Shown one piece after another: positions 1,788 to 41,299 of a DNA stretch of 64,000 nucleotides; the first letter of the stretch is position 1; every line of letters begins with the position of its first letter. The translations under genes were made by a program, and so were the position numbers. Source of the stretch: Nitrospira sp. (GTDB taxonomy: Bacteria; Nitrospirota; Nitrospiria; Nitrospirales; Nitrospiraceae). Location: NCBI GenBank assembly GCA_047150005.1, contig AP038806.1:3552001-3616000 (forward strand), written 5' to 3'. The notes beneath the pieces are model-generated. The model ran no database searches. It was not told the DNA's origin and was given only the letters and a program-made list of their open reading frames with translations.

Positions 1788-4037
1788 TTACCCTTCGACC
1801 TTGATCGTGATGGAAGTCGCGGCCCAGTCCGGAGGTGGACCGGCAGAGACGGCCGGCTCCGGCATGACCGCTGCATCCGCCGGCATAGGAAGCTCGGTAT
1901 GCGCGACGGCCGGCACTGTCGCGGCCGGCTCCGGTTGCGGCTCCGCGGCAGCCTGGCCCGGTACGTGGGGCGTCGGGTCATAGACGGCAATGATGCCGCG
2001 CGCCGCTCTCGTCGTCAGACTCTCTCTGATGCCGCCGATCTCAGTGGAGACTGCGCGGGTGCCGACGGTTGGAGAGCGCTTGGCGGCCGCGGCAGCTTGG
2101 ATACTCCTGATCCGCTGGCGAAGCAGTTGGGCCGTGTCGAGATCCGTGCTGCTGAAGACACGGACAGTATCCGTTCCCTTGGGCGGAGCATAGTCCCAGT
2201 AGAATCCGGCATGGTTGCCGTTCTGCAATGAGTCGGGAATCAAGACCGTTTCGCCGGCCCGAACGTGCCCGTCGGTATAGAAGCCTGCCTTGGTGTAGTC
2301 GTTGGGAAACAACAGATTCACGCCGCCCTCTGCGTCTACGTCCACGACCGTCAGGTAAGAGTCCGCGCTGACTTTGATCTCGAGTTGAAGACTGTTCTCA
2401 GATGTGCGGGGTTTGCCGGATTTTCTGATGCGATATTTGGCCGGCTGCGTATTGGCCGCGACGACGGCGATGCCGCGTGTACCGATGGAGGGCTTTGCCG
2501 GCACCGGCGCATTGGCGACCCGTACGTCGATGCGCAATTGAGATGAGGGATTGTCGAGCGTGAGCAGTTCCGAGGCGGTGGCGGAGCGAGACACGACCAT
2601 CGCCAGACCGGCGCCCCAGTTATCGCCGTCACCGCCGAACGAACCGACCAATTGCAGCCCGTCGGCCGCGAAGAGCTTCACCTCGTTGTCCTGAGCCTGG
2701 ACCAGATAGCGGGGGGACTGATCCGGTCCCACGATCGCGACGTGGGGAATGTATTTCGCCAGGACATCCTCGATGTGCTTGCGCTTGCCGTCGGTCGCGT
2801 CGAGGACTTGAATGGGAATCCTGTCGCCAGTCGGAGCGGGCAGAAACGCCACGGCGCGTGCATGATCCGGAATCCTCCTGTCGGCCGGTTGAAATGTGGC
2901 CTTGGCGTCTTGCCCCGCCAGCTGGATGACCGTCGCGATCGCGATGGCGCGCCCTGGGGCAAATGCCGTGTCTCCCGGCGGATAGACAGCCCAGGTCGAT
3001 CCGGGCACGGCGCCGAGCAATAGTCCGTTGATCAATGTCATCGACCCGGCTTCGCCCGGCTTGACCTCGACCCAGGCCAAACGCGGATTCGAGCCGCCGG
3101 CGGCGAAAGTTCCCGGCGCGCCGGAGGAGCCCAACAGCGGGGTTTCCAGCAGATCCGGCGGCGCTTCAAGTTGGGGTTCGGGCATCGAGGCGCGGCCGAA
3201 ATGCAGTTGAATGCGCTTGAGTTCGGCTTCGACTCCGCGAAAGACTTCTCGCGGCGACGCGGAGGACGGCGCCGAGCGAAGGCTTCGCGACAGGGCATAG
3301 GAGAAAAAGCCGTGATACCGTCCCTCCACCGGACCGTCCAGCGCCTCCTGGTGCGAAGCGGCGCCTGTCATGAGCACGTAGCGCGCGGGCAGCGTCTGAA
3401 TGCCGCCCCTGGTCCTCACCTCCGATCCGGGAGCCGGCCGGTAGAGGTCGAGTCGGGTGTCTTGAGGAATGGACCGGGTTCGGATGTCGAGCGAGCGGGT
3501 CGCCGTACCGGAATGGCAGGAGTCGAGCACGATGAAGGCGCGGCTGGTCGGCAGACGTGTGAAAATGGCCTCCAGTTCGTCATCCGTAATGTCGGGAATC
3601 GTGCCGCTCCGTCCGTCCTGTGGGACGAGGGTTTCGTCGAGATTGTCCTCGGGCTCATCGCCGTTGAGATCCGCCACCTGCGAGCCGTGTCCGGAATAGT
3701 GGATGTACACCATGTCTTGCGGCCCGGTTTCGCCGACGAACTGATTGAGCGCCGCCAAGATGCCCGCGCGCGTAGCCTGTTCGTCGGTGAGCAGGCGGAT
3801 GTGATGTTCCGCGAAGCCCCATCGGGTGATGAGGATCTGTTTCATCGTGTCGATATCGTTCAACGAGCCTTGCAGTTTGGGTACGGCCCGGTACTTGTTG
3901 ATGCCGATCAGCAGCGCCCGCTTCGTGCCGCCGCCTGTTCCTCCTGCGGCCTGGCCCGCAGCGTGATCGTGAAGCGCGCACGCCCAGAGCATGAGGAGGG
4001 CGGCCAAGAAGACGCTGGAGCAGGACGGAGCCTTCAT
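1788..4037 (-). CDS. Secreted caspase-family (peptidase C14, metacaspase/orthocaspase-like) protein with C-terminal DUF4384-like domain
   Basis: Signal peptide; KRALLIGINKY, HYSGHG and LDSCHSG His/Cys dyad; YLTVVDVDAEGGVNLLFPN DUF4384 signature. Confidence 0.9.
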   Translation of the reverse strand: MKAPSCSSVFLAALLMLWACALHDHAAGQAAGGTGGGTKRALLIGINKYRAVPKLQGSLNDIDTMKQILITRWGFAEHHIRLLTDEQATRAGILAALNQFVGETGPQDMVYIHYSGHGSQVADLNGDEPEDNLDETLVPQDGRSGTIPDITDDELEAIFTRLPTSRAFIVLDSCHSGTATRSLDIRTRSIPQDTRLDLYRPAPGSEVRTRGGIQTLPARYVLMTGAASHQEALDGPVEGRYHGFFSYALSRSLRSAPSSASPREVFRGVEAELKRIQLHFGRASMPEPQLEAPPDLLETPLLGSSGAPGTFAAGGSNPRLAWVEVKPGEAGSMTLINGLLLGAVPGSTWAVYPPGDTAFAPGRAIAIATVIQLAGQDAKATFQPADRRIPDHARAVAFLPAPTGDRIPIQVLDATDGKRKHIEDVLAKYIPHVAIVGPDQSPRYLVQAQDNEVKLFAADGLQLVGSFGGDGDNWGAGLAMVVSRSATASELLTLDNPSSQLRIDVRVANAPVPAKPSIGTRGIAVVAANTQPAKYRIRKSGKPRTSENSLQLEIKVSADSYLTVVDVDAEGGVNLLFPNDYTKAGFYTDGHVRAGETVLIPDSLQNGNHAGFYWDYAPPKGTDTVRVFSSTDLDTAQLLRQRIRSIQAAAAAKRSPTVGTRAVSTEIGGIRESLTTRAARGIIAVYDPTPHVPGQAAAEPQPEPAATVPAVAHTELPMPADAAVMPEPAVSAGPPPDWAATSITIKVEG

Positions 4038-4121
4038 GAGATCACCTTTCGGGCCTCTTCAGACAAGGCCGGTTCACGAATGCCTTTCCTTCGCGCCATG
4101 TCGCGACTCCTCTGATCGTTT

Positions 4122-4147
4122 GTCGTTCGCATGCGTGAAGCGGTTCA
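4122..4147 (-). promoter_or_regulatory. Putative ECF promoter TGAACC-N16-CGAC upstream of the caspase
   Basis: Minus strand TGAACC-gcttcacgcatgcgaa-CGAC; -35 overlaps the anti-sigma stop codon. Confidence 0.7.
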
Positions 4148-4822
4148 CGGCCCAACGGCGTCGGCATGCAGGACGACGCGGTCTTGCCCCCGGAGCATGT
4201 TCAGGATCTGACGGGACGTTGCAGGATCCGCCGCCTTGACTTCGAGCACATAGGAGCCTCCGGCAGTGGGACCGTCGACGATACGCCCGTGGACTCGGTC
4301 GACGACCTCGCGGATTTGCGCCTCGGTCGCCTGGTCATGAAAACGAACGGTAAACCGCGCGGCGGGGCTGTCGATCGATCTGGTGCTCACCGGATCCCGA
4401 TCCACCGGCATCGTCACCCAGAGTAGCAACCCGAACTGCACGGCCAGCAGAACCGTCGCCATGGAAGGAACCCACGGAACATCGAAGAGCGAGCGGAACC
4501 AGCGATCGAGGGACGCGAGGCCGCTGCCTTCGCGATCGGCGTTGCGTGCGGAGAGGCGTGTTTCCGACGCCACGTTGGACAGCACGGTTTTGGCCAACGA
4601 CGGCCTCGGTTCCGGCTGGGCTGCGTACGCCTCGTGAAGAGTCCGCCGCAGGTCCGCCCATTCGCTCAGTTCTCTCCGGCAATCCAGACAGGATTCCAAA
4701 TGGCGGGCGACCAAACGACGCTCTTCTTCTCCCAACGTTTCGTTGGCGTACCAGGGGAGCAGGGTCGCTTCCGGATGGACTCCGGCCGGGATGTGTTCCG
4801 GCTCGTTCATACGCCCGTTCAT
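4145..4822 (-). CDS. Membrane anti-sigma factor, zf-HC2 (ZAS) type, with periplasmic C-terminal domain
   Basis: LLPWY...HLESCLDC (HxxxCxxC); one TM helix; overlaps sigma stop (ATGA). Confidence 0.88.
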   Translation of the reverse strand: MNGRMNEPEHIPAGVHPEATLLPWYANETLGEEERRLVARHLESCLDCRRELSEWADLRRTLHEAYAAQPEPRPSLAKTVLSNVASETRLSARNADREGSGLASLDRWFRSLFDVPWVPSMATVLLAVQFGLLLWVTMPVDRDPVSTRSIDSPAARFTVRFHDQATEAQIREVVDRVHGRIVDGPTAGGSYVLEVKAADPATSRQILNMLRGQDRVVLHADAVGP

Positions 4823-5406
4823 ACGATGGGTGCCTTCTGGTTCAGCCGATCCAGCGCTCGTTTGAGATGCTGCTTGGCGTAGAAGACTCGAGTCTTGACG
4901 GTGTTGGACGGGATACCCAACATCGTCGCGATCTCGTCGTAGGGCAGTTCCTCATAGAAGACCAGGCGCAAGACTTCCTGATGCTCGCGCGACAGCGCAG
5001 CCAGCGCCCGCTTCGTCAAAGCCTCGACTTGTTGTCGGTGGATCCCTTCCAGGGGACCGTCGCAGGTGTTCGGAAGTTCGGCGACCTCGTCGAGATCGAC
5101 TTCGCGCTGCCGGCGTCCGGTCCGTCGCAGGGCGTCCAGCGACTTGTGGCGCGCGATACCGAAGATCCAGGTGGAGAGGCGTGACGTACCGGAAAAGGTT
5201 CCGGCGCCCCGCCAGATGGCGATCATGGTTTCCCCGACCACGTCCTCGGCGACCGTCTGGTCGTTGACGAGGCTGTACACGTATTGGTACAGGCGCTTCT
5301 CATACAGATGGTAGAGACGTTCAAAGGCGGCTTGTTCGCCGGCTGCCACGGCACCAAGGAGGTCACTCTCCGAATCCTCACGGTCGTGAGTCGTGTCCAT
5401 GGCCAC
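4819..5406 (-). CDS. ECF RNA polymerase sigma-70 factor
   Basis: Region 2 (AEDVVGETMIAIW, STWIFGIARH) and region 4 (YDEIATMLGIPSNTVKTR). Confidence 0.95.
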   Translation of the reverse strand: MAMDTTHDREDSESDLLGAVAAGEQAAFERLYHLYEKRLYQYVYSLVNDQTVAEDVVGETMIAIWRGAGTFSGTSRLSTWIFGIARHKSLDALRRTGRRQREVDLDEVAELPNTCDGPLEGIHRQQVEALTKRALAALSREHQEVLRLVFYEELPYDEIATMLGIPSNTVKTRVFYAKQHLKRALDRLNQKAPIV

Positions 5407-5523: not shown

Positions 5524-5549
5524 TGAACCTTTTGCTGTATCGTCGCGAC
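5524..5549 (+). promoter_or_regulatory. Putative ECF promoter TGAACC-N16-CGAC
   Basis: TGAACC-ttttgctgtatcgtcg-CGAC ending 28 nt before GTG 5578. Confidence 0.7.
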
Positions 5550-5577: not shown

Positions 5578-7173
5578 GTGGTGAAACAATACTGGCAGGG
5601 CATGCGAGAGGCTGGAACGGGACGGGGAGTCGGACTTGCCCTGCTCGGACCGCTTGTCCTCAGCTCTTGTGCCGCCGCCCCGTTTCTGATTCCGATTGCC
5701 TTCGAATTTGCCAAGAATCTCTTCCAGACCGGCCTGCAGAACTACGGATCCAAGCATCGCGATAACCTGAGTAATCTGGTCAATCGGCTCTCCAGCCCCT
5801 ATATGCAGGGACTCCCTCCCATGGCGATGGGAGGACCGGGATTGCCCGGTCAACCGGGCCAACTCGGGCAGCCCGGCGTTGGAATGCCACCAGGCTTTCC
5901 AGGACAACCGGGAATGCCGCCACCTCAGTACCCGGGACAGGCAGCCTATCCGGGACAAATGGGAGGCTATGATCCAAACAGCGCGGGCATGACCTCCTCC
6001 GGTGCCGCCGCCTATCCCGGATCACCGACTAATCCCTATGGAGGCGCGCAGAGTCTTCCGGGTCAACCGGGAATGAATCCGTTCGATCCGAGCAATCCAT
6101 ATGGAACCGCCGCGGCGAATCCTTACGGGCAACAGACCAATCCGTACGGGACTGCTTCCCCCTATGGCCAGCAGATGAATCCATATGGGACGACGGGAGC
6201 GAATCCCTACGGCACACAGAATCCCTATGGTTCCCCGAATCCCTACGGACAGCCCACGAACCCCTACGGAACGGCGAATCCCTATGGAGCCCCTCCCGCT
6301 CAGATGCAACCGGGCTACGATCCGAACAATCCATATGGAGCAGGTGGAGCGATGCAGGGCTATGGCCAGATTCAACAAGGCTATGGCCAGGTCCAGCAAG
6401 GCTATGGCCAGGTTCAGCAAGGTTACGGACAAGCTCAGCCGGGCTACGGCCAAGTTCCGCAGGGATATGGTGCAACCTCAGCTTATGGAACGCAGCAGCA
6501 AGCCTACGCCAACTACGGAATGTCCGGCCAATCGTATGGAGGCCAGCCGTACGGAGCGGCCGGCATCTATCCTCGATCAGTGGACGGCGAACCGGTCGCC
6601 GTTGATGTGGCGCTGGTCAGACAGAAGCAGACGGCCGGCGGCAAAGAAGTCGTCTTGATGAACGACGGGGAAACCCTCAAGGACGGCGGAGCCAACAAGG
6701 AAGCAGGCGACCGCTTCAAGATCGTCGCGCGTACCAACTGCGATTGCTATCTCTACATCATTTCCATCGACGGATCCGGCTGGGCCGAAACGGTCTTCCC
6801 GGCCAAGGGCGCCGCGACAGCCAATCCCGTCAAGCAGGACCAGGAGTACGGCTTCCCCGAATCGACTTACTGGTACACCTTGGACCAGGTGAAGGGGATC
6901 GAAACGTTCTTTGTCGTCGCGTCACGGAACCGCCGAACAGACTTGGAAGAAAGCATGGAGCAACTGGCCGCGGAGGTTCGGCCGTCGACTCCGATCGTGG
7001 CGAAGGTCGAGGAACCTCCCATTATTCCGCGCGGCGTCGGTTCCGTCCAGACTCGCGGCATCGTGAAGATCCAGGACGACACCGGCACGAAGGTCCAGGT
7101 CACGCCGCTCTCCTACGCGGCGAACCCGCCTACCCAAGATGTGACGGTCACGCGGTGGTTCAAGCACGAATAG
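5578..7173 (+). CDS. Putative lipoprotein with Gly/Pro/Gln/Tyr low-complexity region and C-terminal DUF4384-like domain
   Basis: Lipobox-like LSSC; 11 NPYG repeats and QGYGQ heptads; GDRFKIV...[11 protein letters not shown]...[15 protein letters not shown]. Confidence 0.8.
6355..6470 (+). repeat. Imperfect 21-bp coding tandem repeat (QGYGQxQ)
   Basis: caaggctatggccagg-like units repeated about 5-6 times. Confidence 0.75.
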
Positions 7174-7182: not shown

Positions 7183-8079
7183 ATGCTTCACCTGGCATTA
7201 CGGCGCGGGGCGGCCTTGGCGGTTGCGGGACTTTGCCTGAACGTATTCTTGATGTCCTTAGAAGTCCCAGCTCAGGTGTTTCCACCTCGTCAACCGCAGC
7301 CGCCCGCTCCGGCGCCGCGCCCTCCGACTCAAATGCCCGGTCAGGCGGCCATGCCTCCGCAACCGGGCGCCCTGACGAGAAACATTCCCCTCACGGCGAT
7401 TCTCGGTGATCCGACCAAGTCGTTCATCCAGCTCACCAACATGCGGAGCCCCTTCGACACGAATTTCGCCCTGGGCCGTGGACTGACCGGACGGATTACC
7501 TTGGAGAAGTACACGTATGAAGCCGGCAACGGCCAGAAGGTGTTTGTGCACGTCACAGGAGTCTCCAATCCCCCCATGGTGACGTTGGAGGGACAGGAGA
7601 TTCGCTACCAATTTCTCTTCCCGGTCATCCAGTTGAAAACCTATTACAAAGACTATTCCGGCGAGGGGGATACGGCCCTCAGCGATCTGGTCGCGGAAAA
7701 AGTCGTGGTCGACGTCTTTCTCACCCCGACCATCGACCAGCGGCGTCTGCCCACCTATCATTCCGTGCGCATTGCCGTGATCGGAGCCGTCAAGGAGGCG
7801 GACAAGTGCACGCACTTTTTCGACATGATCTTTCCGGTCAATATCTGCAAGATCGGAGCGGAGTATTTCAAACAGATTCAACCGGCCCTTGAGAATGGTA
7901 TGAGGGAAGTCTTGCTCCAGCCGCCGACACGCATGCAGTTCGAACAGCAAATCTACCAATTCATCCGCGCGGAACTCTTGTCGAAGGCCGGCATCAACCC
8001 GATGAGCCCGGCGCAAGTCGAGATCCTGCAAGGGGAGTTTCGAGGAGCGGATTACGTCGCAAGCTACCAGCCTCGCTAA
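7183..8079 (+). CDS. Secreted hypothetical protein with Pro-rich N-terminal linker
   Basis: Signal peptide; AGGA RBS; 9 nt after the upstream gene. Confidence 0.75.
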   Translation: MLHLALRRGAALAVAGLCLNVFLMSLEVPAQVFPPRQPQPPAPAPRPPTQMPGQAAMPPQPGALTRNIPLTAILGDPTKSFIQLTNMRSPFDTNFALGRGLTGRITLEKYTYEAGNGQKVFVHVTGVSNPPMVTLEGQEIRYQFLFPVIQLKTYYKDYSGEGDTALSDLVAEKVVVDVFLTPTIDQRRLPTYHSVRIAVIGAVKEADKCTHFFDMIFPVNICKIGAEYFKQIQPALENGMREVLLQPPTRMQFEQQIYQFIRAELLSKAGINPMSPAQVEILQGEFRGADYVASYQPR

Positions 8080-8102: not shown

Positions 8103-8663
8103 TCAGTTCCCAAAGAGGTTCGGACTTCCGGTCAACACCTGGCCGTTGCCGACGGCGCTTCCTACCGCGGCAAGCGGTTTGGTGCCGTCGTTGAGCCGCA
8201 TGGTGGCTCCTTTTGCACTCAGAGTGCCTTTCGCCTCGACGGTCATCCCAGCGGCCGTGTGAATCGTGGCGTTTCCGCCGCTCCTCAGGGCCATGGTCGC
8301 GCCGGATTCAATGTTCGTGTCCGTCCCGCTCCTTACGGCGATCGATCCGGCCGACTGGATCATCGTGCCGCCCGCGCTCACGAAGGACAACGCCGGCGCT
8401 TGAATGACGGTTCCATTCGGTGAGACGTGGACGACCGATTGGATCGCAGCCAGCTGCAGCTGTAATGACTGGATCTGCTGCTGAAGCGCGGCGAGCTGCT
8501 GCTCGACCGTCATGGCCGGAATGGAGGTTGTCGGCGCGCGAAAACCCGGCTGCTGAGGACTCGTCGGTCCGGGCACCGCCCGCTCGGTGACATCATCGGC
8601 CGCGACGATCCCGCAGGGCCCAAGTGTAAGCGTCAGCAGCATGACTCTACCCAGAATCTTCAT
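8103..8663 (-). CDS. Secreted spike-like protein: coiled coil, gp5/gpV-type beta-repeat and PAAR-like tip
   Basis: Signal peptide; DDVTERAV; heptad QQLAALQQQIQSLQLQL; about 8-residue beta repeats; C-terminal KPLAAVGS...GQVLTGSPNL. Confidence 0.6.
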   Translation of the reverse strand: MKILGRVMLLTLTLGPCGIVAADDVTERAVPGPTSPQQPGFRAPTTSIPAMTVEQQLAALQQQIQSLQLQLAAIQSVVHVSPNGTVIQAPALSFVSAGGTMIQSAGSIAVRSGTDTNIESGATMALRSGGNATIHTAAGMTVEAKGTLSAKGATMRLNDGTKPLAAVGSAVGNGQVLTGSPNLFGN

Positions 8664-8719
8664 GTGCTCCCCCTCGGCAAAGGTTTGAGTGACAGCCGAA
8701 CATGGGCCATGCCGAACGG

Positions 8720-9754: not shown

Positions 9755-9795
9755 GAAGACTCCTTTCACAATAGGGGTAACGCATGGTCCATAGG

Positions 9796-12434: not shown

Positions 12435-12504
12435 ATGACCTCTCCCATTCACATGACCATAACCGGTCTGCTGCTTCGGCACTCACTCTCGGTTGCGCCA
12501 TAGG

Positions 12505-15951: not shown

Positions 15952-16060
15952 GTTCACCCCCCCACGAGTCACGAAGTCCTGATTGGACCTCTTTGTCACT
16001 GATCCTCCGTGAAATGCTACAAGCCAGCCATGATCATCCATCGTTCATGAAAACTTTCAA

Positions 16061-17801: not shown

Positions 17802-17993
17802 CGCTCTCCTCCTTGTGATTGTGGGTTTGATTGCGGTTGACACTCGCCTTTCGCTCCAACGCCCGTGTGCCTCACCGTTCATCGCGGTACAGCTCGCTTG
17901 CAGCTCACTTCCCATCTCTCGCCCGCGCGATCAATCCCTTCAGCCCCTTCTGAAGATCCAACGCTCGCGTCTCGGGTCGGATCGAACCCTCGC

Positions 17994-18989: not shown

Positions 18990-19081
18990 GATGGACCTCC
19001 CCTTGATCTCTCTATTTCTTAAGATCGCTCTTGTATCTCCTTTGAGGAACATCCTTTGCCAAGATCTTGTGCAATGACTTT

Positions 19082-19468: not shown

Positions 19469-19587
19469 GTTCTGCTCCAATTTCACGCGCACTTCAGTTA
19501 CTGATGACAATTATGAGATGTCACCTCTGTCCTTGACGGGAGCCAAATCACAGCAGACCGGCGGAGAGGACACCCTGTTGCCTGTGT

Positions 19588-30123: not shown

Positions 30124-30149
30124 GTCGTCATTCGGCGTAACTTGGTTCA
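30124..30149 (-). promoter_or_regulatory. Putative ECF promoter TGAACC-N16-CGAC
   Basis: Plus strand gtcg-tcattcggcgtaactt-ggttca, upstream of 30079. Confidence 0.7.
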
Positions 30150-30182: not shown

Positions 30183-30208
30183 TGAACCTCTGCCCCCCTG
30201 CTCTCGAC
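30183..30208 (+). promoter_or_regulatory. Putative ECF promoter TGAACC-N16-CGAC (divergent)
   Basis: TGAACC-tctgcccccctgctct-CGAC upstream of the 27-aa ORF. Confidence 0.68.
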
Positions 30209-31821: not shown

Positions 31822-31931
31822 GGCGGTCTCCTGATTCCCCTGTCCTCCCATGAGGTCATGACTGCTTCCACTAAATACACGCGGCGTTGTCACGCCGATC
31901 GCTTCTCGTTCCCTCGCCCTGAGACCGCTCC

Positions 31932-32906: not shown

Positions 32907-34594
32907 GAGATACACTCCTTTGAGCGGGTATGTTTCATCGTTGCTGCCGAGACGTCGCCGAATCGACGATCTGGAGGGGCCGACGGTTTCGGCGGAATGG
33001 TCCTCCTACGCCCTACGGACCGAGCATGACAGATCATTCCCCCTGCCAAGCTCAATAGACCGACGAGCATGGCGCTATCGCCGGTGATCGTGTAAAGGGT
33101 GGGCCCGGCGCCAACCGTGACCTCACCTGTGACCACCCCCTCGTGGAACAGCCCTGGCACACCCGTGACCACCTTTCCATAGGAGTCGATAATCTGTGAC
33201 GGACCCGTGTTCGACGCGATCACAATCGGCACTCGATTCTCTACGGCGCGCATGACCGACATGAGGTTGTGCTGGAGCGGGGCCGCGCTTCGGCCGAACC
33301 AGACGTCGTTCGTCAGCTGCACCAGTACATTGGCCCCCTCGCGAACCGATTCTCGCGCAAGGGAAGCAAAAAGATTTTCCCAGCAGATCAGTGCACCGGC
33401 AGAGAGGTCGGTCGTCACGTTGAAGAGTTGCGAGTGATCGCCGGGTGTCATTTCTGTCACACGCGGCGCGAGCCATTCAGGCCATGGGATGATCTTCGAC
33501 TGAGGCAAGTACTCGGCGAAAGGAACAAGAACTCGTTTGCGATAGGGCTGACCCGATGGTTGACCGGGCTTGAGTAGATGAGCGCTATTAAATATGCGGC
33601 GACCGATCGTGATTTCCGAGTCTCCCGTCGCGAACTTCTCTACTTGGGCTGCGCCGACGATCAACGACGTCTCGATCTCGTCGACCAGGCGCTGCAATCG
33701 AGCGGTCAGGATTGAGTCTGATCGTAGCTCGCCTGGGATTGCGCTTTCCGGCCAGACAATGAGGGACGGACGATCAGCCGCGACCCGCCGTGTGAGTTCT
33801 TCCAGGCGTCCTAAGCTGGCTTCCCGCCCGTCTTCTGTTGTTCGGTCTGCAAGTTGAATGTTCGGTTGGATGGCGACGACTGAGACGTTCGCTCCTTGAG
33901 GCTGGTTGAACAATACCGTGGCGCCCCACAGATGCGTCAGCACGAGGGCGATGATGGCTATTACCGCCGATCGTCGATCGATGCCGAGGATCAACCCGGC
34001 AAGTGCAACATTGCCCAGCGCGACAAAGAAGGTCACGGCATGTTCACCGCCGAGACTTGCGATCTGAAGGACGGCGAGGTTGCTGTGTTGGGTTTGCGCG
34101 AGGGTCCCCCAGGGAAGGGCCAGAAAGCCGGCATGCGCACGCAGATAATCGGCGACGACCCAGAGGATCGGACCGGTGAGAATGAGAGGCGCATGGCGGC
34201 GGGCTACCCACGCCACGGCTGCGCACCATAGAGTGGGGTAGATCGCCACGTAGAGCGCCAGCACGATCGCATGGCGCAAATCGAAAGCGGGAACTTCAAA
34301 TAGCCAGCCATAAATACCGAAACTCGACACAATCCCAAACAGGAGGCCAAGGCCTGCGGCTCTGAGCGGCGCAAGGTCGTGGCACGCCACCATGAGGGGA
34401 ACCAACGCCACCCAGCCGAGCCAACCGACGTCCGGACTGGGCAACGAGCAGATCAAGAGCCCCGCGGACAACAAGGAGGACACAATTCTCGTGAAGGGAC
34501 ATTCGAGGGCCTGTTGACGGCGAAACGATCGCGGAGCAACTGCGAAGCTGCCTGATAACGAAAGGACAGGGCTTGTGTACGAGTCCTTGTTCAT
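32903..34594 (-). CDS. lnt: Apolipoprotein N-acyltransferase
   Basis: Multi-TM N-terminus; nitrilase triad WPES, YRKRVLVPFAE, ICWE; TNDVWFG; RAVEN. Confidence 0.93.
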   Translation of the reverse strand: MNKDSYTSPVLSLSGSFAVAPRSFRRQQALECPFTRIVSSLLSAGLLICSLPSPDVGWLGWVALVPLMVACHDLAPLRAAGLGLLFGIVSSFGIYGWLFEVPAFDLRHAIVLALYVAIYPTLWCAAVAWVARRHAPLILTGPILWVVADYLRAHAGFLALPWGTLAQTQHSNLAVLQIASLGGEHAVTFFVALGNVALAGLILGIDRRSAVIAIIALVLTHLWGATVLFNQPQGANVSVVAIQPNIQLADRTTEDGREASLGRLEELTRRVAADRPSLIVWPESAIPGELRSDSILTARLQRLVDEIETSLIVGAAQVEKFATGDSEITIGRRIFNSAHLLKPGQPSGQPYRKRVLVPFAEYLPQSKIIPWPEWLAPRVTEMTPGDHSQLFNVTTDLSAGALICWENLFASLARESVREGANVLVQLTNDVWFGRSAAPLQHNLMSVMRAVENRVPIVIASNTGPSQIIDSYGKVVTGVPGLFHEGVVTGEVTVGAGPTLYTITGDSAMLVGLLSLAGGMICHARSVGRRRTIPPKPSAPPDRRFGDVSAATMKHTRSKECIS

Positions 34595-34605
34595 CTTGCT
34601 CCCAG

Positions 34606-35568
34606 TTAGGCATCCTCCTGCACACTGACTTCCATAAACTCCGCCGTCCCTCGTTCCAGGTACCAATAGAAGTTGTGCGAGCCTGGTGCAAGGTGAACGT
34701 AACTCCAGTGGTTGTAGACATTGGCGCCCGATCCATAATCGAACTGCTTGACGACGATGCCGCCTTTTACAAGAGAAGCCTTCGCATTGCTCATGAAGCC
34801 CACAACATTCACGTAGTACATGCCTTCCCGAGGTACCGTGACATTGAACACCAACCATGATTTGCCCTGCGGACTTTCAATATGAATTCCCGCATCCAGC
34901 ACCGGCCTGAAAGGATCAAACTGCCAAATGCCCCTAAAGGTGAGACCGGAATTCTTGGGGTCTTTGGCAGTGAAGACCGCTTTGAAGGGTTCCGCAGCTT
35001 GTGCCTCACCTGGCCGGAAGAGGCTGGCCAGGGAGAACGCCGACTGTCCGTCTGAGGGGAGTTGCGAGAGGTGTAGTCCCCGCCGCTTGGCTTCCTCAAT
35101 CATCTCGCGGCCGCCCGGCTCGGCAAGCAGAAAACCTCGCAATTGCTGAATCGTAGGTGTGGGGCGTGGCGGCATATTTGGAGGCATCATCGCTCTTCCG
35201 GGCAGTTGCATTTCCGGTGGAGCAGCCTGTGCAGGCGGCAGGGCATTCGTCCGGCTGAACAAATTCAATTTGCCCATTCGTCCTTCGAACGTATTGGGAA
35301 ACGTCTGAAGGGGGGAGGGCGTGGCGTTCAATCGTTGCGTCTGTATCAATTCCGGTGGCAACGCCGTTTCGGCCGGAAATTTCGGCAGGAGAAGCGCACG
35401 AGGAGCGACTGGAGAGGCAACAGGGCTCGTCGGGGAAGGTTTCCCTGCTTGCACCACCGGCTGGATCAGTCTGTCGTTTGGGCCGGCCTTGACCTCGTGC
35501 GAAACCGTGAGCCATATCGTCGTCGCCCCGCCAAGAGCGATGGTCAGCATCAGAAGTGAGCGCCTCAT
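34606..35568 (-). CDS. Secreted hypothetical protein (family P3)
   Basis: Signal ending VKA; Pro-rich; C-terminal GMYYVNV...LAPGSHNFYW. Confidence 0.72.
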   Translation of the reverse strand: MRRSLLMLTIALGGATTIWLTVSHEVKAGPNDRLIQPVVQAGKPSPTSPVASPVAPRALLLPKFPAETALPPELIQTQRLNATPSPLQTFPNTFEGRMGKLNLFSRTNALPPAQAAPPEMQLPGRAMMPPNMPPRPTPTIQQLRGFLLAEPGGREMIEEAKRRGLHLSQLPSDGQSAFSLASLFRPGEAQAAEPFKAVFTAKDPKNSGLTFRGIWQFDPFRPVLDAGIHIESPQGKSWLVFNVTVPREGMYYVNVVGFMSNAKASLVKGGIVVKQFDYGSGANVYNHWSYVHLAPGSHNFYWYLERGTAEFMEVSVQEDA

Positions 35569-35631
35569 GGTGTCCCCCCCCGCATTGGGCCTGTTGCTCA
35601 TCCTAATTCAAACGGCCGGTGTCCATGACTC

Positions 35632-36216
35632 TCACCCTTCGATCTTGGCTTTGAGAATATGGGTTTCCAGGAATTCAACAGAGCCGCTCTCCAGGGTCCA
35701 GTAAAAGAAATGAACACCAGCCCTGAGCTCTACCAGCGCCGGATACAGGTGCATTCCCTGCGGCCGGTTCCTGTAATCCCAACTGGCTACATTCACCGGC
35801 GTCGGCGCGGCAGACGTTAAGCTGGCTCGGGCGCCCGGCCCGCTGATCACGCAGTTCACGATGTACCATCCATCTTTCGGAGCTTTGACCATGATCAGGA
35901 CGCGCGCCGGCCCGTTGTCGAGCGAATTGACGATGGTGGGGCTCGTCATCATCACCTTATTGTTGCCGGACATCGTGACGCCGATGAGAAAAATTGAGCT
36001 GCCTTGGAGGGAACGGTTCTCTCGCGGCGTCAGCGTTTCCGGCAGGGACTCGTCAGCAGGCCCGATCGGTCCGGACCGACCCACGGCCAAGGTGTCCGGA
36101 GGGGAGAGCCATTTCAAAGGCGATCCATTAGGCGGAAGGCTCAGCCAGAGGCATCCCGCCATAATGGGGACAAGAACTACCGGAGACAGAACGGCACGCG
36201 TTCGTCTTCGATGCAT
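35632..36216 (-). CDS. Exported hypothetical protein (family P3)
   Basis: GGAGG RBS; C-terminal GWYIVNC...LRAGVHFFYW. Confidence 0.7.
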   Translation of the reverse strand: MHRRRTRAVLSPVVLVPIMAGCLWLSLPPNGSPLKWLSPPDTLAVGRSGPIGPADESLPETLTPRENRSLQGSSIFLIGVTMSGNNKVMMTSPTIVNSLDNGPARVLIMVKAPKDGWYIVNCVISGPGARASLTSAAPTPVNVASWDYRNRPQGMHLYPALVELRAGVHFFYWTLESGSVEFLETHILKAKIEG

Positions 36217-36261: not shown

Positions 36262-36286
36262 GTCGATGCATCTCCCTGAAGGTTCA
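36262..36286 (-). promoter_or_regulatory. Putative ECF promoter variant TGAACC-N15-CGAC
   Basis: Plus strand gtcg-atgcatctccctgaa-ggttca, upstream of 36216. Confidence 0.55.
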
Positions 36287-36295
36287 AGTCACCCG

Positions 36296-36931
36296 TCACT
36301 TTCCCGTTCCCTTCAGCGCATCCGTCCAGGCCTTCGCGGCCTTCGCGTCGGTCGCGGCGGGCTTCGTGCATTTCTTGCCGCGCACGCCGTAACTGATGGT
36401 TTCGGTCCGAATCGGGCAGGTGCCGAAGGGCGTACCGAACTGGACGACGCCCTCGATCACCGTGAGAATGCTTTGCCCGTCTTCCTGGACTTTCAGGTTG
36501 AACTCCGTTTCCTTCACCGCTGCTGTGGCCACCGGCGTCTCCACCTCGAACCGTTTCGGTCCGCCGGCGGTCTTCGCCCAGACTTCCCCCTCTTTCAAAC
36601 GGAGGATCCGCACCGTCGGCTTGTCCTTCTCCCATCGAGATAACAGTTTGAACGACGTGTTCTCGTTGAGCGCCACCTCGATGCCTTCCGTGAATGTGAT
36701 GAGGGCTTGGCTGCCGGCGTCGGTCTTGAGGACATCGCCTTCATAGAGGGGGACATTCCCTTTGCCCTGCAACCGTTGCTGTACGCCGTCGGTTCGGACG
36801 ATGACCAGCGTGCCGATGGCGTTGGTGGCCGTTCCCATGGGAGTATTGTCGGCGTAAGCCGTCGGAAGCGTGGCGAGGTTGAGCACTCCGAGCAGGAGAA
36901 CCGCGATCATCGCATCTCGTAGAATCGTCAT
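36296..36931 (-). CDS. Secreted FecR-domain protein
   Basis: AYA signal; LYEGDVLKT, VALNENT, LKEGEVW, VETPVATAAVKETEF. Confidence 0.82.
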   Translation of the reverse strand: MTILRDAMIAVLLLGVLNLATLPTAYADNTPMGTATNAIGTLVIVRTDGVQQRLQGKGNVPLYEGDVLKTDAGSQALITFTEGIEVALNENTSFKLLSRWEKDKPTVRILRLKEGEVWAKTAGGPKRFEVETPVATAAVKETEFNLKVQEDGQSILTVIEGVVQFGTPFGTCPIRTETISYGVRGKKCTKPAATDAKAAKAWTDALKGTGK

Positions 36932-36987: not shown

Positions 36988-38028
36988 CTATCTGGAAACG
37001 ACGACTCGGATCGGCTTGCGGCCGACCGGCACCGTCGCGAGCGTTTGGCCGGTTCCCGTGTCGATCACGCGGATTTCATTTCCCTTGTCGTGCGCGACGA
37101 AGAGACGCGTGCCTTCCGGATTAGACCAAATACCGTTCGGGCTTTCACCGACGGCGATTTCGTCCATGATTTTGAGTTCCTTGAGATCGCCGCCGAGTCC
37201 CACCACCTTGTTCTGGCTGCCGACCGTCACGTAGGCCAGGGGACCGGTCGTGCCTTTGTACGCGAAGGCGATCTGTTGAGGCTTGTCGCCCACGGCGAAG
37301 GTGCCGACCTTCTCATGACTCTCCGGGTCCAGGACGTATACGTCGTTTTGGCCGGTATTGACGCCCCAGATATGTCCGTCCCGGCTCACGACCAGGAAAT
37401 GCGGATTGGCTCCGACTGGAATCGTCTTGACGACCTGATGGGACGTGATATCGATGACACCGACCGTTTTCTCTCCTTGAGAGCTGACGAACGCATACCG
37501 CCCGTCGTGTGAAAAGGTCAGACCGGTCGGACCCTTGCTCACCGGGATCGTCCCGAGGATTCTGAAGGTGGTGGTGTCGATGATCGAGATCGTATTGTCG
37601 CCGATGTTGGCGACCCAGAGCTGGCTATCGTCGTTGCTGAGCGCGACGACATGGCACCGTTCGCCAGTGTAGATCGATGCGATCGTTTCTCGTTTCGCCG
37701 TGTCGATGACGGAGACTCGCCCGGATGCCAAGTTACTGGCGTACAGGCGGCGGCCGTCTCGGCTCACGGCCAAGTCGTGTGTCGAATGGTTGAGCGCAGC
37801 AATCGTGCCGACCGATTGAAAATTCGTGGCGTCGATCACGCTGACGTCGTTGCTGCTCTCGTTGGCGACATAGATGCGGGAGGGGACTGGAGCGAGCGCC
37901 GACGTCGATGACGGCACGGAGGCCGTGGGCATGTCATACGACCCTATCTTGGTGGGTTCGAAGGCGCCGGCACAACCGGCGATCCCCGGCGCGAGGCACA
38001 CAAAAAGAGCGAACCGATCTATACGCAT
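36988..38028 (-). CDS. YVTN/YncE beta-propeller lipoprotein
   Basis: IAGC lipobox; YVANESSNDVSVID-type repeats. Confidence 0.85.
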   Translation of the reverse strand: MRIDRFALFVCLAPGIAGCAGAFEPTKIGSYDMPTASVPSSTSALAPVPSRIYVANESSNDVSVIDATNFQSVGTIAALNHSTHDLAVSRDGRRLYASNLASGRVSVIDTAKRETIASIYTGERCHVVALSNDDSQLWVANIGDNTISIIDTTTFRILGTIPVSKGPTGLTFSHDGRYAFVSSQGEKTVGVIDITSHQVVKTIPVGANPHFLVVSRDGHIWGVNTGQNDVYVLDPESHEKVGTFAVGDKPQQIAFAYKGTTGPLAYVTVGSQNKVVGLGGDLKELKIMDEIAVGESPNGIWSNPEGTRLFVAHDKGNEIRVIDTGTGQTLATVPVGRKPIRVVVSR

Positions 38029-38071: not shown

Positions 38072-41000
38072 TCAGCGCACCTGGCCCAGTATCAACTGTC
38101 CCTCGACCTCACCTTTCTTGACCGGATGCTGATTCTGGCCGGTCACCTCCGGAACTTTCTTCGACACATAGCCGTAGACTTCGTCGACCGTCACGATACC
38201 GTCCTTGTCGGCGTCGGCCTTGCCGCGCAACCCTTCCAGGAGATAGTAGGTGAACACGCCGTGTCCGAGATCTTCCCGCTCCTCGCTGACCTCGCTGGCC
38301 TTACTCGCGCTGAGCACGATCCGCCCCTTGCCTTTGGACAGCCGGGACAGAAAATTCTCGGAGACGACCGCCCGTCGGGAGGCGGTGGCGAACGTCCGGC
38401 CGGCCGTCGCGCCGCTGTAGCAGGAATCGCTGATGAAGATGATGCGTTCCGGGGTCAGGCGCTGGAAGATCGTTTCGATTTCCCTCATCGGCAAGCCGGT
38501 CGTATACAGGTCCCGCGGGTCCGCGTCGAAAGGGACGATGTATTTTTCCAACCCATCGTCGTCGCCTGCCGATGAATCGGCCTCCGGCGCGCCGTGACCG
38601 GCGTAGTAGACAATGACCGTATCTTTCTCTCCGGCCTTTCGTCTGAGATCGGTCCCCAGGGTTCTTTTGAGGTTCATCAAGGTGGCCTGATCGTTGAGCA
38701 ACAGGGTCGTCTGCTCCTTGGGAATGCCGATATGGTTGGCGAGATAATCATGGAAGGCCAGGGCGTCCTTGTCCGCATAGCGGAGCGGCTGTACCCCCTT
38801 ATAATGGGAAATGCCGATCACGACCGCCCAGATTTTCCCGCGATCGGCGACCCGCGTGACGTTGAGCGTGCGGGTGGCCGAGAGATTGTCGCGATCGACG
38901 GCGGTCACGACGATCTGATTCTTGCCTTCTCGCAACGCTAAACGTTCGGAGAACTCGATGTTGGTTTGAATATCCGACCCTTCCGATTTCACCGTGACGC
39001 CCCGGCTGTCCTTCTGGGTCACGAGCTGTCCGTTGAGGCGGATCTCGACCCGCGCAACCCCCTTCTCGCTCGCCGCCGCGCCGGCCAGATGGATCCGCTC
39101 GACGCCGACTTCCGTGCCGTCCGACGGGCTGGCCAGGGCGATGACCGGAGGCGCGTTCTGATAAAGCTTGACGACCGGCGTCCCGGAGATCGTCGGGACC
39201 GGCATGTCTCCCTTCACCGGTTCTTGTGATTCTCGAACGTCCGCCTTCGCAACCCAGCCGACTTCTTTGGGAGAAATCTGCACGCGATACCACTCGCCCA
39301 GTTCACCGGTCACGGCCAGACCCTGATCTTTCGGGGCGGAGGCGATGACGGACGCCTCGGCGCCGGCACCGCTGTGAATTGTCGCGGACTGGGCGCTCAC
39401 CGCGACCACTTTGTTGGTGACGACGATCTGCGGGGCGGTCTTGTGATCGACGGCGACCTTCATGGTGTCATCCAGGGTCGTGTGAAGGCCGCGCTCCTTG
39501 ATGAAGAGGCGAATCGGAATCTGCTCGTCTCGGATATCGCGGCCGACGAACAGGTTGACCGTGGCATGCTTGGCTTCGTCGGGCTTGAGCAGTCCGAGGT
39601 CTACCTGGCTCTTGCTGAGTTTCAAACTTGGGTTGGGCGGGATTGAGACATCCACGGTGGTGTTCTGGGCTTGGACCGCTCCGACGTTTTTGACGGTGAC
39701 AAGGAGGTCTACCGCTTCGCCCCGCTGCAGCCGCCCGTCGCCGTTTCCCACCGAGCTGCCGCTTCCGTCGTCGATGATTTGCAGAGTGTAGGCGAACCGG
39801 GGACGGGGCAAGCCTTTGAGTGCCAACACCGCATTCAGGTTCTCCGGCACGAAGCCGTTATATTCCTCGAATTCCACGCGAACAGGAATGCTGCCGTCCG
39901 GGCGGTCGGCCGGGACCTTGATCGTCACGACATCCTCTGCGCTCTGCCCCCCGTCGATCTTGCCCAAATAAAAGAGATGCCCGTCGAGGGCCGGATCGTC
40001 GCTCTTGATACGGGCTTGAAACCGGTAGAGCGGCCCTTTGCCTGCGTTTCGCACCGCCAGAGTCAAGGTCACTTCGCTTCCGGCCTTTGCTTCCATCGGT
40101 CTGATCGCCAGGTCTGCTTGGGCCAGCGGGGGAGGAGACGGCGGAGTACCAATCTCGTTGCCCCGCCGCTGCATCTTTTCGGACAGCTGCGCGCTGAGCG
40201 TCGGCGGCGTGGGCGGTTGCAACCGGACAATGCGGTCTCGACCGCCGGAGGCGACCAGGGCACCATCGGGCGACATCGCCAGCGACCAAACCGGTCCCTT
40301 GTGGCCGCCGAGGGTATGGCGTTCGTTGCCGGAAGCGACGTCCCAGACCCGCACGGTCCCGTCGGCGCCGGCCGACACCAAGGCACGGCCGTCTGAGGAA
40401 AACACGATCGTATGGACCTCTCCTTTGTGTCCGGTGAGCGTCAGGTGTTCCTGGCCGCTCTCGAGGTCCCACAGGCGGATCGAGCCGTCCGCAGAGGCGC
40501 TGGCCAACCATTGACTGTTAGGGTGAAACGCGAGGCCGTGCACGGCACCGGCATGTCCGGACAGGGCCTGCCGTTGCCGGCCGGTCGCCAGATCCCAGAG
40601 ATGCACCTGCATGTCGCTGCTGCCGGTCGCGAGTGTCTTGCCGTCCGGTGAGAACCGCAATGCGAAGACGACGCCGAATTGCCCGCGGACCGATTTCAGT
40701 TCTTTGCCGTTCGCGGTGTCCCACAGGCGGAAACTTCCGTCGTTCCCGCCGGAGGCGATCGTTTTTCCATCCGCCGCGAACGCCACCGCGCGGACCGCGC
40801 CGAACGTCGACGTCATGGCGCGCAACTCGCGTCCGGATGCCACGTCCCAGACGCGGATTGAAGTGTCGGCGCTGCCCGAGACCAGCAGGGTACCGTCCGG
40901 CGAGAAGGCCAGGGCATGCACTGCGCCCAAATGCCCGCGCAGGACACGTAAATCCCTGCCCGTGTCCGGTTCCCAGAGACGAATGGTTTGATCGGTTCCG

Positions 41001-41224
41001 GCCGAGGCGACGAGTCGGCCGTCAGGTGAGAACGCGACAGCGAGCACTTCGTTGCTGTGTCCGTTCAGTAGGCGGGTCGCCTGTTCGAGAGCCCGCGAAA
41101 CGAGAGGAAAACCCACGAGCCCAGAGATGAGCAGCCCGGCGAAGAAATATCGGCACATGATGCGGATGTTGCCCCGTCCGCTCACGGCGCTCTCCTCGGC
41201 CCAGCACACTGCAGAAACGGCCAT
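38072..41224 (-). CDS. WD40 (7 blades), Ig-like, SH3b and caspase-family (C14) protease; probably exported (alternative start 41158)
   Basis: 7 GH..V..AFSPDG-type repeats; GELGEWYRVQ...GWV SH3b; WAVVIGISHY, YYAGHG and ISDSCYSG. Confidence 0.9.
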   Translation of the reverse strand: MAVSAVCWAEESAVSGRGNIRIMCRYFFAGLLISGLVGFPLVSRALEQATRLLNGHSNEVLAVAFSPDGRLVASAGTDQTIRLWEPDTGRDLRVLRGHLGAVHALAFSPDGTLLVSGSADTSIRVWDVASGRELRAMTSTFGAVRAVAFAADGKTIASGGNDGSFRLWDTANGKELKSVRGQFGVVFALRFSPDGKTLATGSSDMQVHLWDLATGRQRQALSGHAGAVHGLAFHPNSQWLASASADGSIRLWDLESGQEHLTLTGHKGEVHTIVFSSDGRALVSAGADGTVRVWDVASGNERHTLGGHKGPVWSLAMSPDGALVASGGRDRIVRLQPPTPPTLSAQLSEKMQRRGNEIGTPPSPPPLAQADLAIRPMEAKAGSEVTLTLAVRNAGKGPLYRFQARIKSDDPALDGHLFYLGKIDGGQSAEDVVTIKVPADRPDGSIPVRVEFEEYNGFVPENLNAVLALKGLPRPRFAYTLQIIDDGSGSSVGNGDGRLQRGEAVDLLVTVKNVGAVQAQNTTVDVSIPPNPSLKLSKSQVDLGLLKPDEAKHATVNLFVGRDIRDEQIPIRLFIKERGLHTTLDDTMKVAVDHKTAPQIVVTNKVVAVSAQSATIHSGAGAEASVIASAPKDQGLAVTGELGEWYRVQISPKEVGWVAKADVRESQEPVKGDMPVPTISGTPVVKLYQNAPPVIALASPSDGTEVGVERIHLAGAAASEKGVARVEIRLNGQLVTQKDSRGVTVKSEGSDIQTNIEFSERLALREGKNQIVVTAVDRDNLSATRTLNVTRVADRGKIWAVVIGISHYKGVQPLRYADKDALAFHDYLANHIGIPKEQTTLLLNDQATLMNLKRTLGTDLRRKAGEKDTVIVYYAGHGAPEADSSAGDDDGLEKYIVPFDADPRDLYTTGLPMREIETIFQRLTPERIIFISDSCYSGATAGRTFATASRRAVVSENFLSRLSKGKGRIVLSASKASEVSEEREDLGHGVFTYYLLEGLRGKADADKDGIVTVDEVYGYVSKKVPEVTGQNQHPVKKGEVEGQLILGQVR

Positions 41225-41273
41225 CGACGAAATGACGTCGAGCGCTCTTCCCCGACAAGCCTTGTCTCCCTTG

Positions 41274-41299
41274 GTCGATTGCAGGCTCTGATCGGTTCA
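41274..41299 (-). promoter_or_regulatory. Putative ECF promoter TGAACC-N16-CGAC at the head of the cluster
   Basis: Minus strand TGAACC-gatcagagcctgcaat-CGAC. Confidence 0.7.

Follow-up and report, generated by a model that had tools for sequence, protein, structure and literature searches.

Introduction

In Myxococcus xanthus, DdvS, a sigma factor of the extracytoplasmic function (ECF) type, is paired with DdvA, a transmembrane zinc anti-sigma factor with a caspase-like TPR-CHAT domain in the periplasm (PMC11506125). In its available portion, that 2024 paper proposes, rather than demonstrates, that DdvA cuts its own juxtamembrane linker ahead of RseP. Here we describe a locus in Nitrospira sp., hereafter the island (positions 1788..41299 of the window), in which an ECF sigma factor and an anti-sigma factor lie beside one exported caspase homologue, and a second such homologue closes the far end of a long run of exported proteins. 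By the window we mean the whole stretch of DNA analysed, namely positions 1-64,000 of G000:C1:3552001-3616000 (AP038806.1, assembly GCA_047150005.1). The host genome is complete, with a size of 4.07 Mb and a G+C content of 59%.

The island shares with DdvS/DdvA an ECF sigma factor, a single-pass zinc-finger anti-sigma factor and a proposed periplasmic site-1 protease of the caspase fold. As far as the accessible text of that work describes it, CHAT is fused to the anti-sigma factor in DdvA, and the DdvA/DdvS regulon is CBASS and CRISPR. In the island, by contrast, the C14-DUF4384 caspase is a separate protein, the 225-aa anti-sigma factor has zf-HC2 only, and the predicted regulon consists of secreted proteins with arginine motifs, together with a second, WD40 caspase. 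Linkage of sigma-70 and metacaspase genes was reported by Asplund-Samuelsson et al. (2012; PMC3501461). In the operons described in the available part of that paper, an ECF-type sigma factor is likewise linked to a caspase homologue, and many such caspases have signal-like N-terminal helices; the island adds a regulon of ~40 kb, a defined promoter and two cargo motifs. Such known cassettes comprise three or four genes, and neither a regulon nor a promoter or substrate motif has been described for them.

Three further systems invite comparison, each through sources available in part. With DegS/RseA/RseP (PMC11506125) the island has in common a single-pass anti-sigma factor, a periplasmic site-1 cut (a candidate one here) and the presence of M50 genes, but its candidate site-1 enzyme is a caspase homologue that is itself a member of the predicted regulon. 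In Craspase/Csx30 and the type III-B cascade, a caspase-fold protease also acts upstream of an ECF-type sigma factor. Those type III CRISPR systems are cytoplasmic and triggered by RNA or cyclic oligoadenylate, whereas the island caspases have signal-like N-termini and no cas family was matched in a PADLOC scan of 24 island proteins. The original prediction, made earlier for this stretch of DNA, had called its inferred cascade CRISPR-independent. Finally, the clan-CD Arg-gingipains RgpA/B of Porphyromonas gingivalis mature surface proteins and type V pilins (PMC5954841). There, precursors that arrive at the envelope, many of them lipoproteins, lose an N-terminal lipidated segment to an Arg-specific clan-CD protease, which leaves a mature protein competent for assembly, and polyprotein domains are freed, much as is proposed for the island. 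Gingipains are C25 enzymes, whereas those of the island are C14, come from another phylum and go with an ECF circuit and a C-terminal R↓G motif (the arrow marks the candidate cleavage position throughout); the resemblance is functional only.

The original prediction had also presented periplasmic caspase/anti-sigma signalling as a novelty. In that respect DdvA, as described in the available text, is a published parallel. What is new is the cargo regulon with conserved motifs, which would join the pairing of ECF sigma factor, anti-sigma factor and caspase fold to the maturation of surface proteins by clan-CD enzymes. Nothing on the island, its promoter or its motifs was found in the literature, most subscription journals being outside the search.

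The two caspases and the sigma/anti-sigma pair

The four genes on which the argument turns are as follows.

1788..4037, minus strand, C14 caspase with DUF4384, exported, 749 aa, dyad H117/C174 (Pfam)
4145..4822, minus strand, zf-HC2 anti-sigma factor, 225 aa (Pfam)
4819..5406, minus strand, ECF sigma factor, regions 2 and 4 (Pfam)
38072..41224, minus strand, WD40-SH3-Big-C14 caspase, exported, 1050 aa, likely start M23 (Pfam)

Domains were assigned with Pfam. Gene starts in the island are longest open reading frame (ORF) guesses, made without a gene caller, and export was called from a Kyte-Doolittle hydrophobicity heuristic and from the N-terminal sequences, not with SignalP. Nearly all island genes are on the minus strand. 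By this heuristic, 30 of 33 island ORFs have a signal-like N-terminal hydrophobic segment, the others being the sigma factor, the anti-sigma factor (with one internal transmembrane segment) and the polytopic Lnt. Several proteins have lipoboxes and one has a twin-arginine signal. The original prediction of two C14 caspases with intact dyads and export-type N-termini, enclosing a set of exported proteins, was confirmed, and about 27 enclosed proteins were counted. Pfam likewise confirms its ECF/zf-HC2 pair, DsbA and Lnt.

Both caspases match Peptidase_C14 (PF00656) above the cut-off, with an E value of 5.1e-24 for C14-DUF4384 and 1.5e-19 for the second protein, in which the domain follows seven WD40 repeats, SH3_3 and Big_7. 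The dyad motifs are HYSGHG and DSCHSG in C14-DUF4384, where H117 and C174 are unchanged across 19 aligned orthologues, and YYAGHG and DSCYSG in WD40-C14, both unchanged across 13 orthologues. In the linker that follows the catalytic Cys, C14-DUF4384 has conserved R181-S-L and R188-S-I sites (alignment of 19), and WD40-C14 has SRRA[VMI] in 13/13 orthologues, SRR↓AV in the island copy. The D-x-C signature before the catalytic Cys of both proteins is one that we take to mark the metacaspase/orthocaspase class. Metacaspases and orthocaspases cleave after Arg or Lys, according to the accessible part of PMC6426788, and we infer that the island C14 caspases are Arg-directed. As a separate observation, NCBIfam TIGR03900, the MXAN_5808 family of long serine peptidases of the Prc type, is resembled in its C-terminal part by residues 377-791 of the WD40 caspase (E 1e-69, under the family cut-off).

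The sigma factor matches Sigma70_r2, r4, r4_2 and Sigma70_ECF in Pfam and TIGR02937 above the cut-off in NCBIfam, and its gene overlaps that of the anti-sigma factor by 4 nt. The zinc-binding residues H41, C45 and C48 of the anti-sigma factor (H-x3-C-x2-C) are invariant in the alignment. A single transmembrane segment near residues 121-140 is followed by a periplasmic domain of ~85 aa, in which R148 (STR↓SI), followed by [SGA][IVL], lies ~10 residues past the membrane helix in 19/19 orthologues. Genes for M50 site-2 proteases are encoded elsewhere in the host genome. A predicted complex between C14-DUF4384 (residues 30-749) and the anti-sigma ectodomain (138-225) scored 0.00, which gives no verdict and counts neither way.

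A promoter motif shared by the island genes

Seven intergenic copies of one promoter motif were found in the island.

4122..4147, minus strand, promoter motif TGAACC-N16-CGAC, lying between the stop of the anti-sigma gene and the C14-DUF4384 start, 110 nt ahead of the latter
5524..5549, plus strand, promoter motif before the divergent DUF4384-protein gene, immediately after TTGACC-N17-TACAAT
25484..25509, minus strand, promoter motif, 69 nt before the 25440 start (DsbA operon)
30124..30149, minus strand, promoter motif, 70 nt before the 30079 start (cargo operon)
30183..30208, plus strand, promoter motif facing a small plus-strand ORF (ATG near 30257)
36262..36286, minus strand, promoter motif with a 15-nt spacer, 70 nt before the 36216 start
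41274..41299, minus strand, promoter motif, 75 nt before the WD40-C14 start

The consensus is TGAACC-N16-CGAC-nn-AC. When both strands of the whole genome were searched with TGAACC-N15-17-CGAC, 49 matches were obtained, 8 of them in positions 1-45000 of the window against ~0.5 expected pro rata. Those at 4147(-), 5524(+), 25509(-), 30149(-), 30183(+), 36286(-) and 41299(-) are the intergenic copies, with the -35 element 54-110 nt upstream of a start codon, and the eighth, at 17597(+), is antisense within a gene. The sevenfold recurrence claimed by the original prediction therefore holds, and the copy before WD40-C14 falls at 41299, the final coordinate of that prediction. Earlier promoter guesses (GGAAC...CGT) and 7-mer counts gave no promoter; the GGAAC lies inside CAG-GAA-CGN, which encodes Q-E-R and is coding sequence.

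Comparison was extended to a set of related loci totalling 1.07 Mb, which also served for the motifs described below. The density of the promoter motif is 109/Mb in these loci and 10/Mb in the rest of the host genome. Of 117 matches, 90 have a spacer of 16, and conservation extends to two positions that the search pattern left free (A in 104/117, C in 89/117). The motif precedes 16 of 21 C14-DUF4384 orthologues, 11 of 13 WD40-C14 orthologues and 17 orthologues of the DUF4384 protein; spacers vary among these promoters while the motif is kept, and it is conserved across genera. For 19 loci, an alignment of the sequence upstream of the sigma gene shows a canonical TTGACC-N17-TACAAT and, immediately following it, a conserved TGAACC-N16-CGAC-nn-AC that faces the divergent gene. 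From gene linkage, we infer that this promoter, of the -35 GAAC / -10 CG type, is read by the neighbouring ECF sigma factor.

Two arginine motifs in the exported cargo

Fifteen exported proteins of the island, which we call cargo, carry an arginine motif.

8103..8750, minus strand, cargo with the variant motif DVTER↓AV and an LGPC lipobox, M30 being the likely start
9796..11208, minus strand, S1 (trypsin-fold) serine protease cargo, lipobox, AVQER↓AV at residue 49, VMSR↓GVEGE at residue 444
11373..12482, minus strand, cargo with two N-type motifs at residues 59 and 99, tandem beta-sandwich model
12505..16041, minus strand, cargo of 1178 aa with N-terminal domain X, TSP3 repeat, EIQER↓AV at 1020 and a 159-aa C-terminal domain
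16061..17311, minus strand, lipoprotein cargo, DUF7910 repeats, DVQER↓GV at residue 72
17346..17915, minus strand, small Cys-rich cargo, IQRR↓GVEGEQ 23 aa from the end
17994..19301, minus strand, cargo, 75% identical to its paralogue 11373, DIQER↓GV, with M105 as the likely start
19082..19510, minus strand, small Cys-rich cargo, DVQER↓GL
21218..22489, minus strand, cargo, GIQER↓GL
22362..23207, minus strand, Cys-rich cargo, VIGR↓GVEGE, likely start M90
23131..24273, minus strand, cargo, distant 11373 paralogue, DVQER↓GV
26382..27617, minus strand, cargo, C-type IRPR↓GVDE 16 aa from the end
27614..28831, minus strand, cargo, IMPR↓GIDKKE
28886..30079, minus strand, cargo, ILPR↓GVDEK
30367..32010, minus strand, fusion-like cargo with a 27614-like domain, LFAR↓GVEEK (residue 368) and domain X

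The motifs are of two distinct kinds, one N-proximal (N-type) and one C-proximal (C-type). The N-type reads G-[DE]-[VI]-Q-E-R↓[GA]-[VLI] and is preceded by a stretch rich in P, A, S and E; Q-E-R is invariant in 77 instances from the related loci. Its strict form is present in eight cargo proteins, and a TERAV variant in a ninth. The C-type, in short [IVL]-x-x-R↓G-[VI]-[ED]-[GE], is carried as a class by seven cargo proteins; its logo in the related loci is [IVL]-[MRQL]-[RPSH]-R↓G-[VI]-[ED]-[GE]-[EK]. In those loci, 85 of 178 RG[VI][DE] sites are within 45 aa of the ORF end; the C-type motif is followed by acidic tails of 15-37 aa, most of which have K or KP as their last residues, and no transmembrane or lipid-attachment feature was found after the motif at these sites.

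The original prediction had seen a single arginine motif in most of the cargo, in both caspases and in the anti-sigma factor. This stands for the cargo, where it divides into two motifs, but the strict forms were not found in either caspase or in the anti-sigma factor. Only a core R-[SGA]-[VIL] occurs there, invariant in place, at R148 of the anti-sigma factor, at R181 and R188-S189 of C14-DUF4384 and at SRRA[VMI] of WD40-C14. The cargo motifs are specific to the island when set against the rest of the genome. A six-frame search for [VIL]QER[GAS][VILM] gave 14 matches, nine of them in the island, at 11067-24060 (13 kb), all on the minus strand and in long ORFs. A search for RG[VI][DE][EGK][EKG] in ORFs of at least 80 aa gave 15, seven of them in the island, of which one is a chance antisense match.

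A history of duplicated leader regions, or chance, might account for such repetition, and several cargo proteins are indeed paralogous. The motif is however carried by several families without mutual BLAST similarity, its flanks vary while it stays fixed across genera, its codons vary, and 9/14 genome matches fall within 13 kb. We consider shared ancestry or chance highly improbable. In the S1-protease and DUF7910 families, which are unrelated, the motif is the sole conserved stretch of an otherwise variable linker. Because synonymous codons within the motif vary as in the genome at large, selection on the motifs acts, on the evidence of codon use, at the level of the protein; the same genome-like codon use led us to reject a DNA-level explanation of the N-type motif. 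In 12505 and 30367, motifs stand between domains that exist separately elsewhere.

No curated family names were obtained for the cargo from NCBIfam or Pfam. The commonest N-type family is that of 11373, whose mature part is modelled as a tandem beta-sandwich with a predicted local distance difference test (pLDDT) score of 82.6. In a Foldseek search the model was matched weakly by FnIII pairs, by transglutaminase barrels and by RbmA, a Vibrio biofilm protein. In comparison with type V (FimA-type) pilins, this modelled cargo protein has no pilin match of weight, SpaD pilin appearing only at rank 41. The S1 protease was rejected as first choice for the Arg-cutting enzyme, because Ser occupies its chymotrypsin-189 position, where the aligned residue of kallikrein-2 is Asp189.

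Distribution of the two modules

The survey was a single draw of 121 genomes of the host family, from 39 genera, and includes one unpublished genome (G092) on which no result rests. The figures are counts and not statistical tests, and related genomes are not independent.

Five further genomes from the genus share the island in synteny, the ends being conserved and the middle variable. The anti-sigma factor is present in 20 of the 121 genomes and 10 of the 39 genera. A full-length C14-DUF4384 gene adjoins it in 18 of these 20; of the remaining two, one has C14-DUF4384 on other small contigs and one, which is 72% complete, is without it. The WD40-C14 mid-region was found in 17 genomes, and both modules in 14. 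For a census of the N-type motif we used a degenerate DNA pattern for [DE][VI]QER[GA]x, with the reversed pattern as control. At least three matches occur in nine genomes, all with both modules, and in none of the 101 genomes without the anti-sigma factor. At least two occur in 12 of the 17 WD40-C14 genomes and in one of the 104 others, and the reversed pattern never gave more than two per genome. The S1-protease cargo is found in 9/121 genomes, eight of them with the anti-sigma factor. In the ninth, G055, an orthologue of C14-DUF4384 and the mid-region of WD40-C14 are present.

Motif-bearing cargo thus appears to track the WD40 caspase, and the DUF4384 caspase appears to be tied to the sigma/anti-sigma pair. 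A co-occurrence search in related genomes, as suggested with the original prediction, found motif-cargo clusters only alongside caspase or sigma genes, and motif cargo without either was not seen among the genomes searched.

Two further loci were noted. In another family of the same order (G390:C2:1889001-1909000) there is an ECF sigma factor, an anti-sigma factor, a divergent C14-DUF4384 (45% identity), two DUF4384 proteins, domain-X proteins and the same promoter motif; no QER or RGVE motifs were found in the 20 kb read. The host itself has a second, smaller locus (C1:875000-893200) with three C14 genes, exported proteins with VESRG[VM] N-type variants, an RGVEGE site, a domain-X protein and one promoter copy at 890606(-).

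Proposed mechanism and alternatives

To account for the observed genes and motifs, with their conservation, position and co-occurrence, we propose an ECF regulon of exported precursors that are matured by the island caspases, with WD40-C14 as convertase and C14-DUF4384 as partner of the anti-sigma factor. We incline to this reading tentatively, holding it to be nearly an even matter. One ECF sigma factor would read the TGAACC-N16-CGACnnAC promoters, and nearly all products of the regulon would be exported. Many would be made as precursors with an N-type site, placed after a signal peptide or lipid anchor and a variable linker, or a C-type site, 15-37 residues from the C-terminus. The exported C14 caspases would cut at R↓[GA][VIL], and cleavage would free mature domains from their anchor and linker, strip the acidic tail and split fused domains. 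WD40-C14 is the likelier convertase because it is found with the cargo, with which it appears to travel. C14-DUF4384, fixed beside the sigma and anti-sigma genes, would be the likelier site-1 protease, cutting the anti-sigma factor at R148; release of the sigma factor by an M50 site-2 protease would follow. The loop would be self-reinforcing, because C14-DUF4384 itself carries the regulon promoter.

Several observations weigh against this proposal. The conserved elements upstream of the sigma gene (19 loci aligned) look sigma-70-like, and because of this any positive feedback would run via induction of the caspase. Evidence on autoregulation of the sigma operon is mixed, in that TGAACT-N16-CGAC overlaps the annotated sigma start at 5415 and the strict motif is at the same place in two other genomes. 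The original prediction had the sigma factor induce the caspases and the cargo; one promoter motif does precede both caspases and several cargo operons. The tripeptide R-[SGA]-[VIL] occurs often (a six-frame reading of the genome contains RG[VIL] 5824 times), so the core sites in the caspases and the anti-sigma factor have weight by invariance and position only. On the P side the motif types are unlike, with Q-E in one and hydrophobic-x-basic in the other, and one active site may not fit both. Six genomes with the anti-sigma module and without WD40-C14 have 0-1 pattern matches and no motif clusters, and in G124, a complete genome, the WD40 caspase is found but the anti-sigma factor is not. In G010, G146, G151 and G139 the sigma/C14-DUF4384 module is far from the cargo, which adjoins WD40-C14.

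This separation of module and cargo in some genomes would suit a case in which the motifs were processing sites of another protease, a housekeeping one or one that has gone unrecognised in the island, with the caspases as ordinary regulon members that have other targets. The link from caspase to site is, moreover, a predicted one. Set against this are the clustering of the motif with the WD40 caspase (12/17 against 1/104), the Ser at position 189 of the sole other protease seen in the island, and the core R-[SGA]-[VIL] shared by the caspase linkers. We regard processing by another enzyme as rather improbable.

Two observations on the cargo sites themselves also speak against cleavage by the caspases, and suit a reading in which the motifs are not cut at all. 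The N-type site of the S1 protease is ~35 residues ahead of the canonical VVGG mature N-terminus, and because of that distance a cut there would depart from classical zymogen activation. There is also conservation within the C-terminal tails (QPSPFDP in one family, a terminal K or KP in most), as might be expected of recognition tags more than of propeptides to be thrown away. The motifs may instead be docking or sorting signals, read by the WD40 or YncE-type propellers or by DUF4384 domains for surface routing, retention or assembly, in the manner of the C-terminal sorting tags of other systems. It fits this that the cargo has WD40 and YncE-type propellers and a FecR protein as strictly conserved neighbours, and that RG[VI]-hydrophobic strands flank the DUF4384 domains of two core proteins. 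A shared P1-P1'-P2' is, however, a better fit to the Arg, small and aliphatic residues common to both motifs and to the caspase linkers; the motifs also stand between domains, and the C-type motif is followed by no transmembrane or lipid-attachment feature. Docking or sorting is in our view unlikely, yet to be taken seriously.

The pairing of sigma factor and caspase could also point to a defence or programmed-death island, in which the ECF/anti-sigma pair senses envelope attack, the caspases hit the cell's own envelope or invaders, and the motifs are incidental. Sigma-metacaspase operons occur in Myxococcus and others, in the available part of PMC3501461, DdvA/DdvS governs a defence island (PMC11506125, in its accessible text), and both island caspases match a PADLOC model. 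That model is the generic caspase one, and apart from it only one HEAT-ARM model was matched, by the WD40 part, among the 24 proteins scanned; PHROGs matched 0 of 8 island proteins. What the predicted regulon contains is DsbA and Lnt along with exported proteins of lectin-like, beta-sandwich, Cys-rich and protease kinds, not nucleases or known effectors. A role in defence is accordingly a distant prospect.

A bolder extension of the proposed maturation is that the paired motifs are donor and acceptor sites for transpeptidation by the caspases. Legumains, GPI transamidase and PorU are clan-CD enzymes that catalyse transpeptidation. An acyl-enzyme formed at a C-type R↓GVEGE would be resolved by the G[VIL] or A[VIL] amino terminus from a QER↓ site, giving a covalent matrix or surface layer under a self-amplifying loop with separate signalling and assembly caspases. 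We offer this as a long shot.

Other proteins of the island and its surroundings

The remaining island genes are as follows.

5578..7173, plus strand, lipoprotein-like DUF4384 protein, rich in G/P/Q/Y over a long region, with IIPRGV / TRGIV as C-terminal sites
7183..8079, plus strand, exported core protein, 298 aa, weak BPI/LBP/TULIP-like fold matches in its model
8720..9799, minus strand, exported protein with a twin-arginine-type signal, without motif
19588..21147, minus strand, exported protein with N-terminal domain X, without strict motif
24332..25150, minus strand, DsbA-like thiol-disulfide oxidoreductase (Pfam DSBA)
25096..25440, minus strand, small exported ORF, first of the DsbA operon
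25740..26237, minus strand, exported DUF3558-like protein (weak Pfam match)
31932..32915, minus strand, exported protein; VQERIV in it is probably no motif
32903..34858, minus strand, Lnt (apolipoprotein N-acyltransferase), island copy, LNT_N and CN_hydrolase (Pfam)
34606..35601, minus strand, exported protein, C-terminus paralogous to 35632-36216
35632..36216, minus strand, lipoprotein-like protein
36296..36931, minus strand, exported FecR-domain protein, conserved beside the WD40 caspase
36988..38028, minus strand, YncE-type beta-propeller lipoprotein, conserved beside the WD40 caspase

The island Lnt is a second copy (267 bits), a better lnt (342 bits) being found at C1:3739190-3740434, which suggests dedicated lipoprotein handling for the island. 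The small Cys-rich cargo fits the presence of DsbA, and the lipoboxes fit the extra Lnt. The model of the 298-aa core protein has a pLDDT of 87.9 and gives weak but consistent matches to the lipid-binding folds BPI, LBP, CETP, Der f 7 and YceB. For the two proteins modelled (11373 and this one), the best Foldseek matches had E values of 3.4e-4 (TM 0.24) and 2.4e-3 (TM 0.30-0.33) and are leads only. In the ESM Atlas both gave unnamed clusters or scores <0.9, with 7183-8079 pointing to lipid-binding folds at a low score.

The protein at 5578-7173 contains ~250 aa of G/P/Q/Y-rich repeats of the NPYG type, and its gene is directly behind the best-conserved promoter copy, ahead of which stands a canonical sigma-70 promoter. 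At 8103-9799 are two neighbouring exported proteins without family match, one with a twin-arginine signal and the other a lipoprotein with a repetitive C-terminal half rich in Gly, Thr and Ser.

Beyond the island, positions 46000-52000 have a GC content of 0.47-0.54 and hold a second ECF-type sigma factor (50238-50801), a C39/C70-like cysteine peptidase (47825-48406) and a methyltransferase; this stretch is probably acquired DNA. Inverted copies of an element of ~1.2 kb, at 52337-53530 and 56451-57644, have identical ORFs of 390 aa and 277 aa and flank tRNA-Arg(ACG) at 54752-54827. The 390-aa frame has no Pfam match.

Implications

Little is established about what bacterial caspase homologues cut in nature and what they do. 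The island offers about 15 candidate substrates in one genome and many more across Nitrospiraceae, with two sharp candidate recognition sequences and a candidate regulatory substrate (anti-sigma R148). If the proposed mechanism is true, it would extend the idea put forward for DdvA, of a periplasmic site-1 protease with the caspase fold, to an enzyme that is separate and diffusible and that, besides, matures the products of its own regulon. The lectin-like, beta-sandwich, Cys-rich and protease cargo is compatible with a role at the cell surface or in a matrix. Nitrospira are key nitrite oxidisers in soils and wastewater plants, and their aggregation and surface biology are of practical weight.

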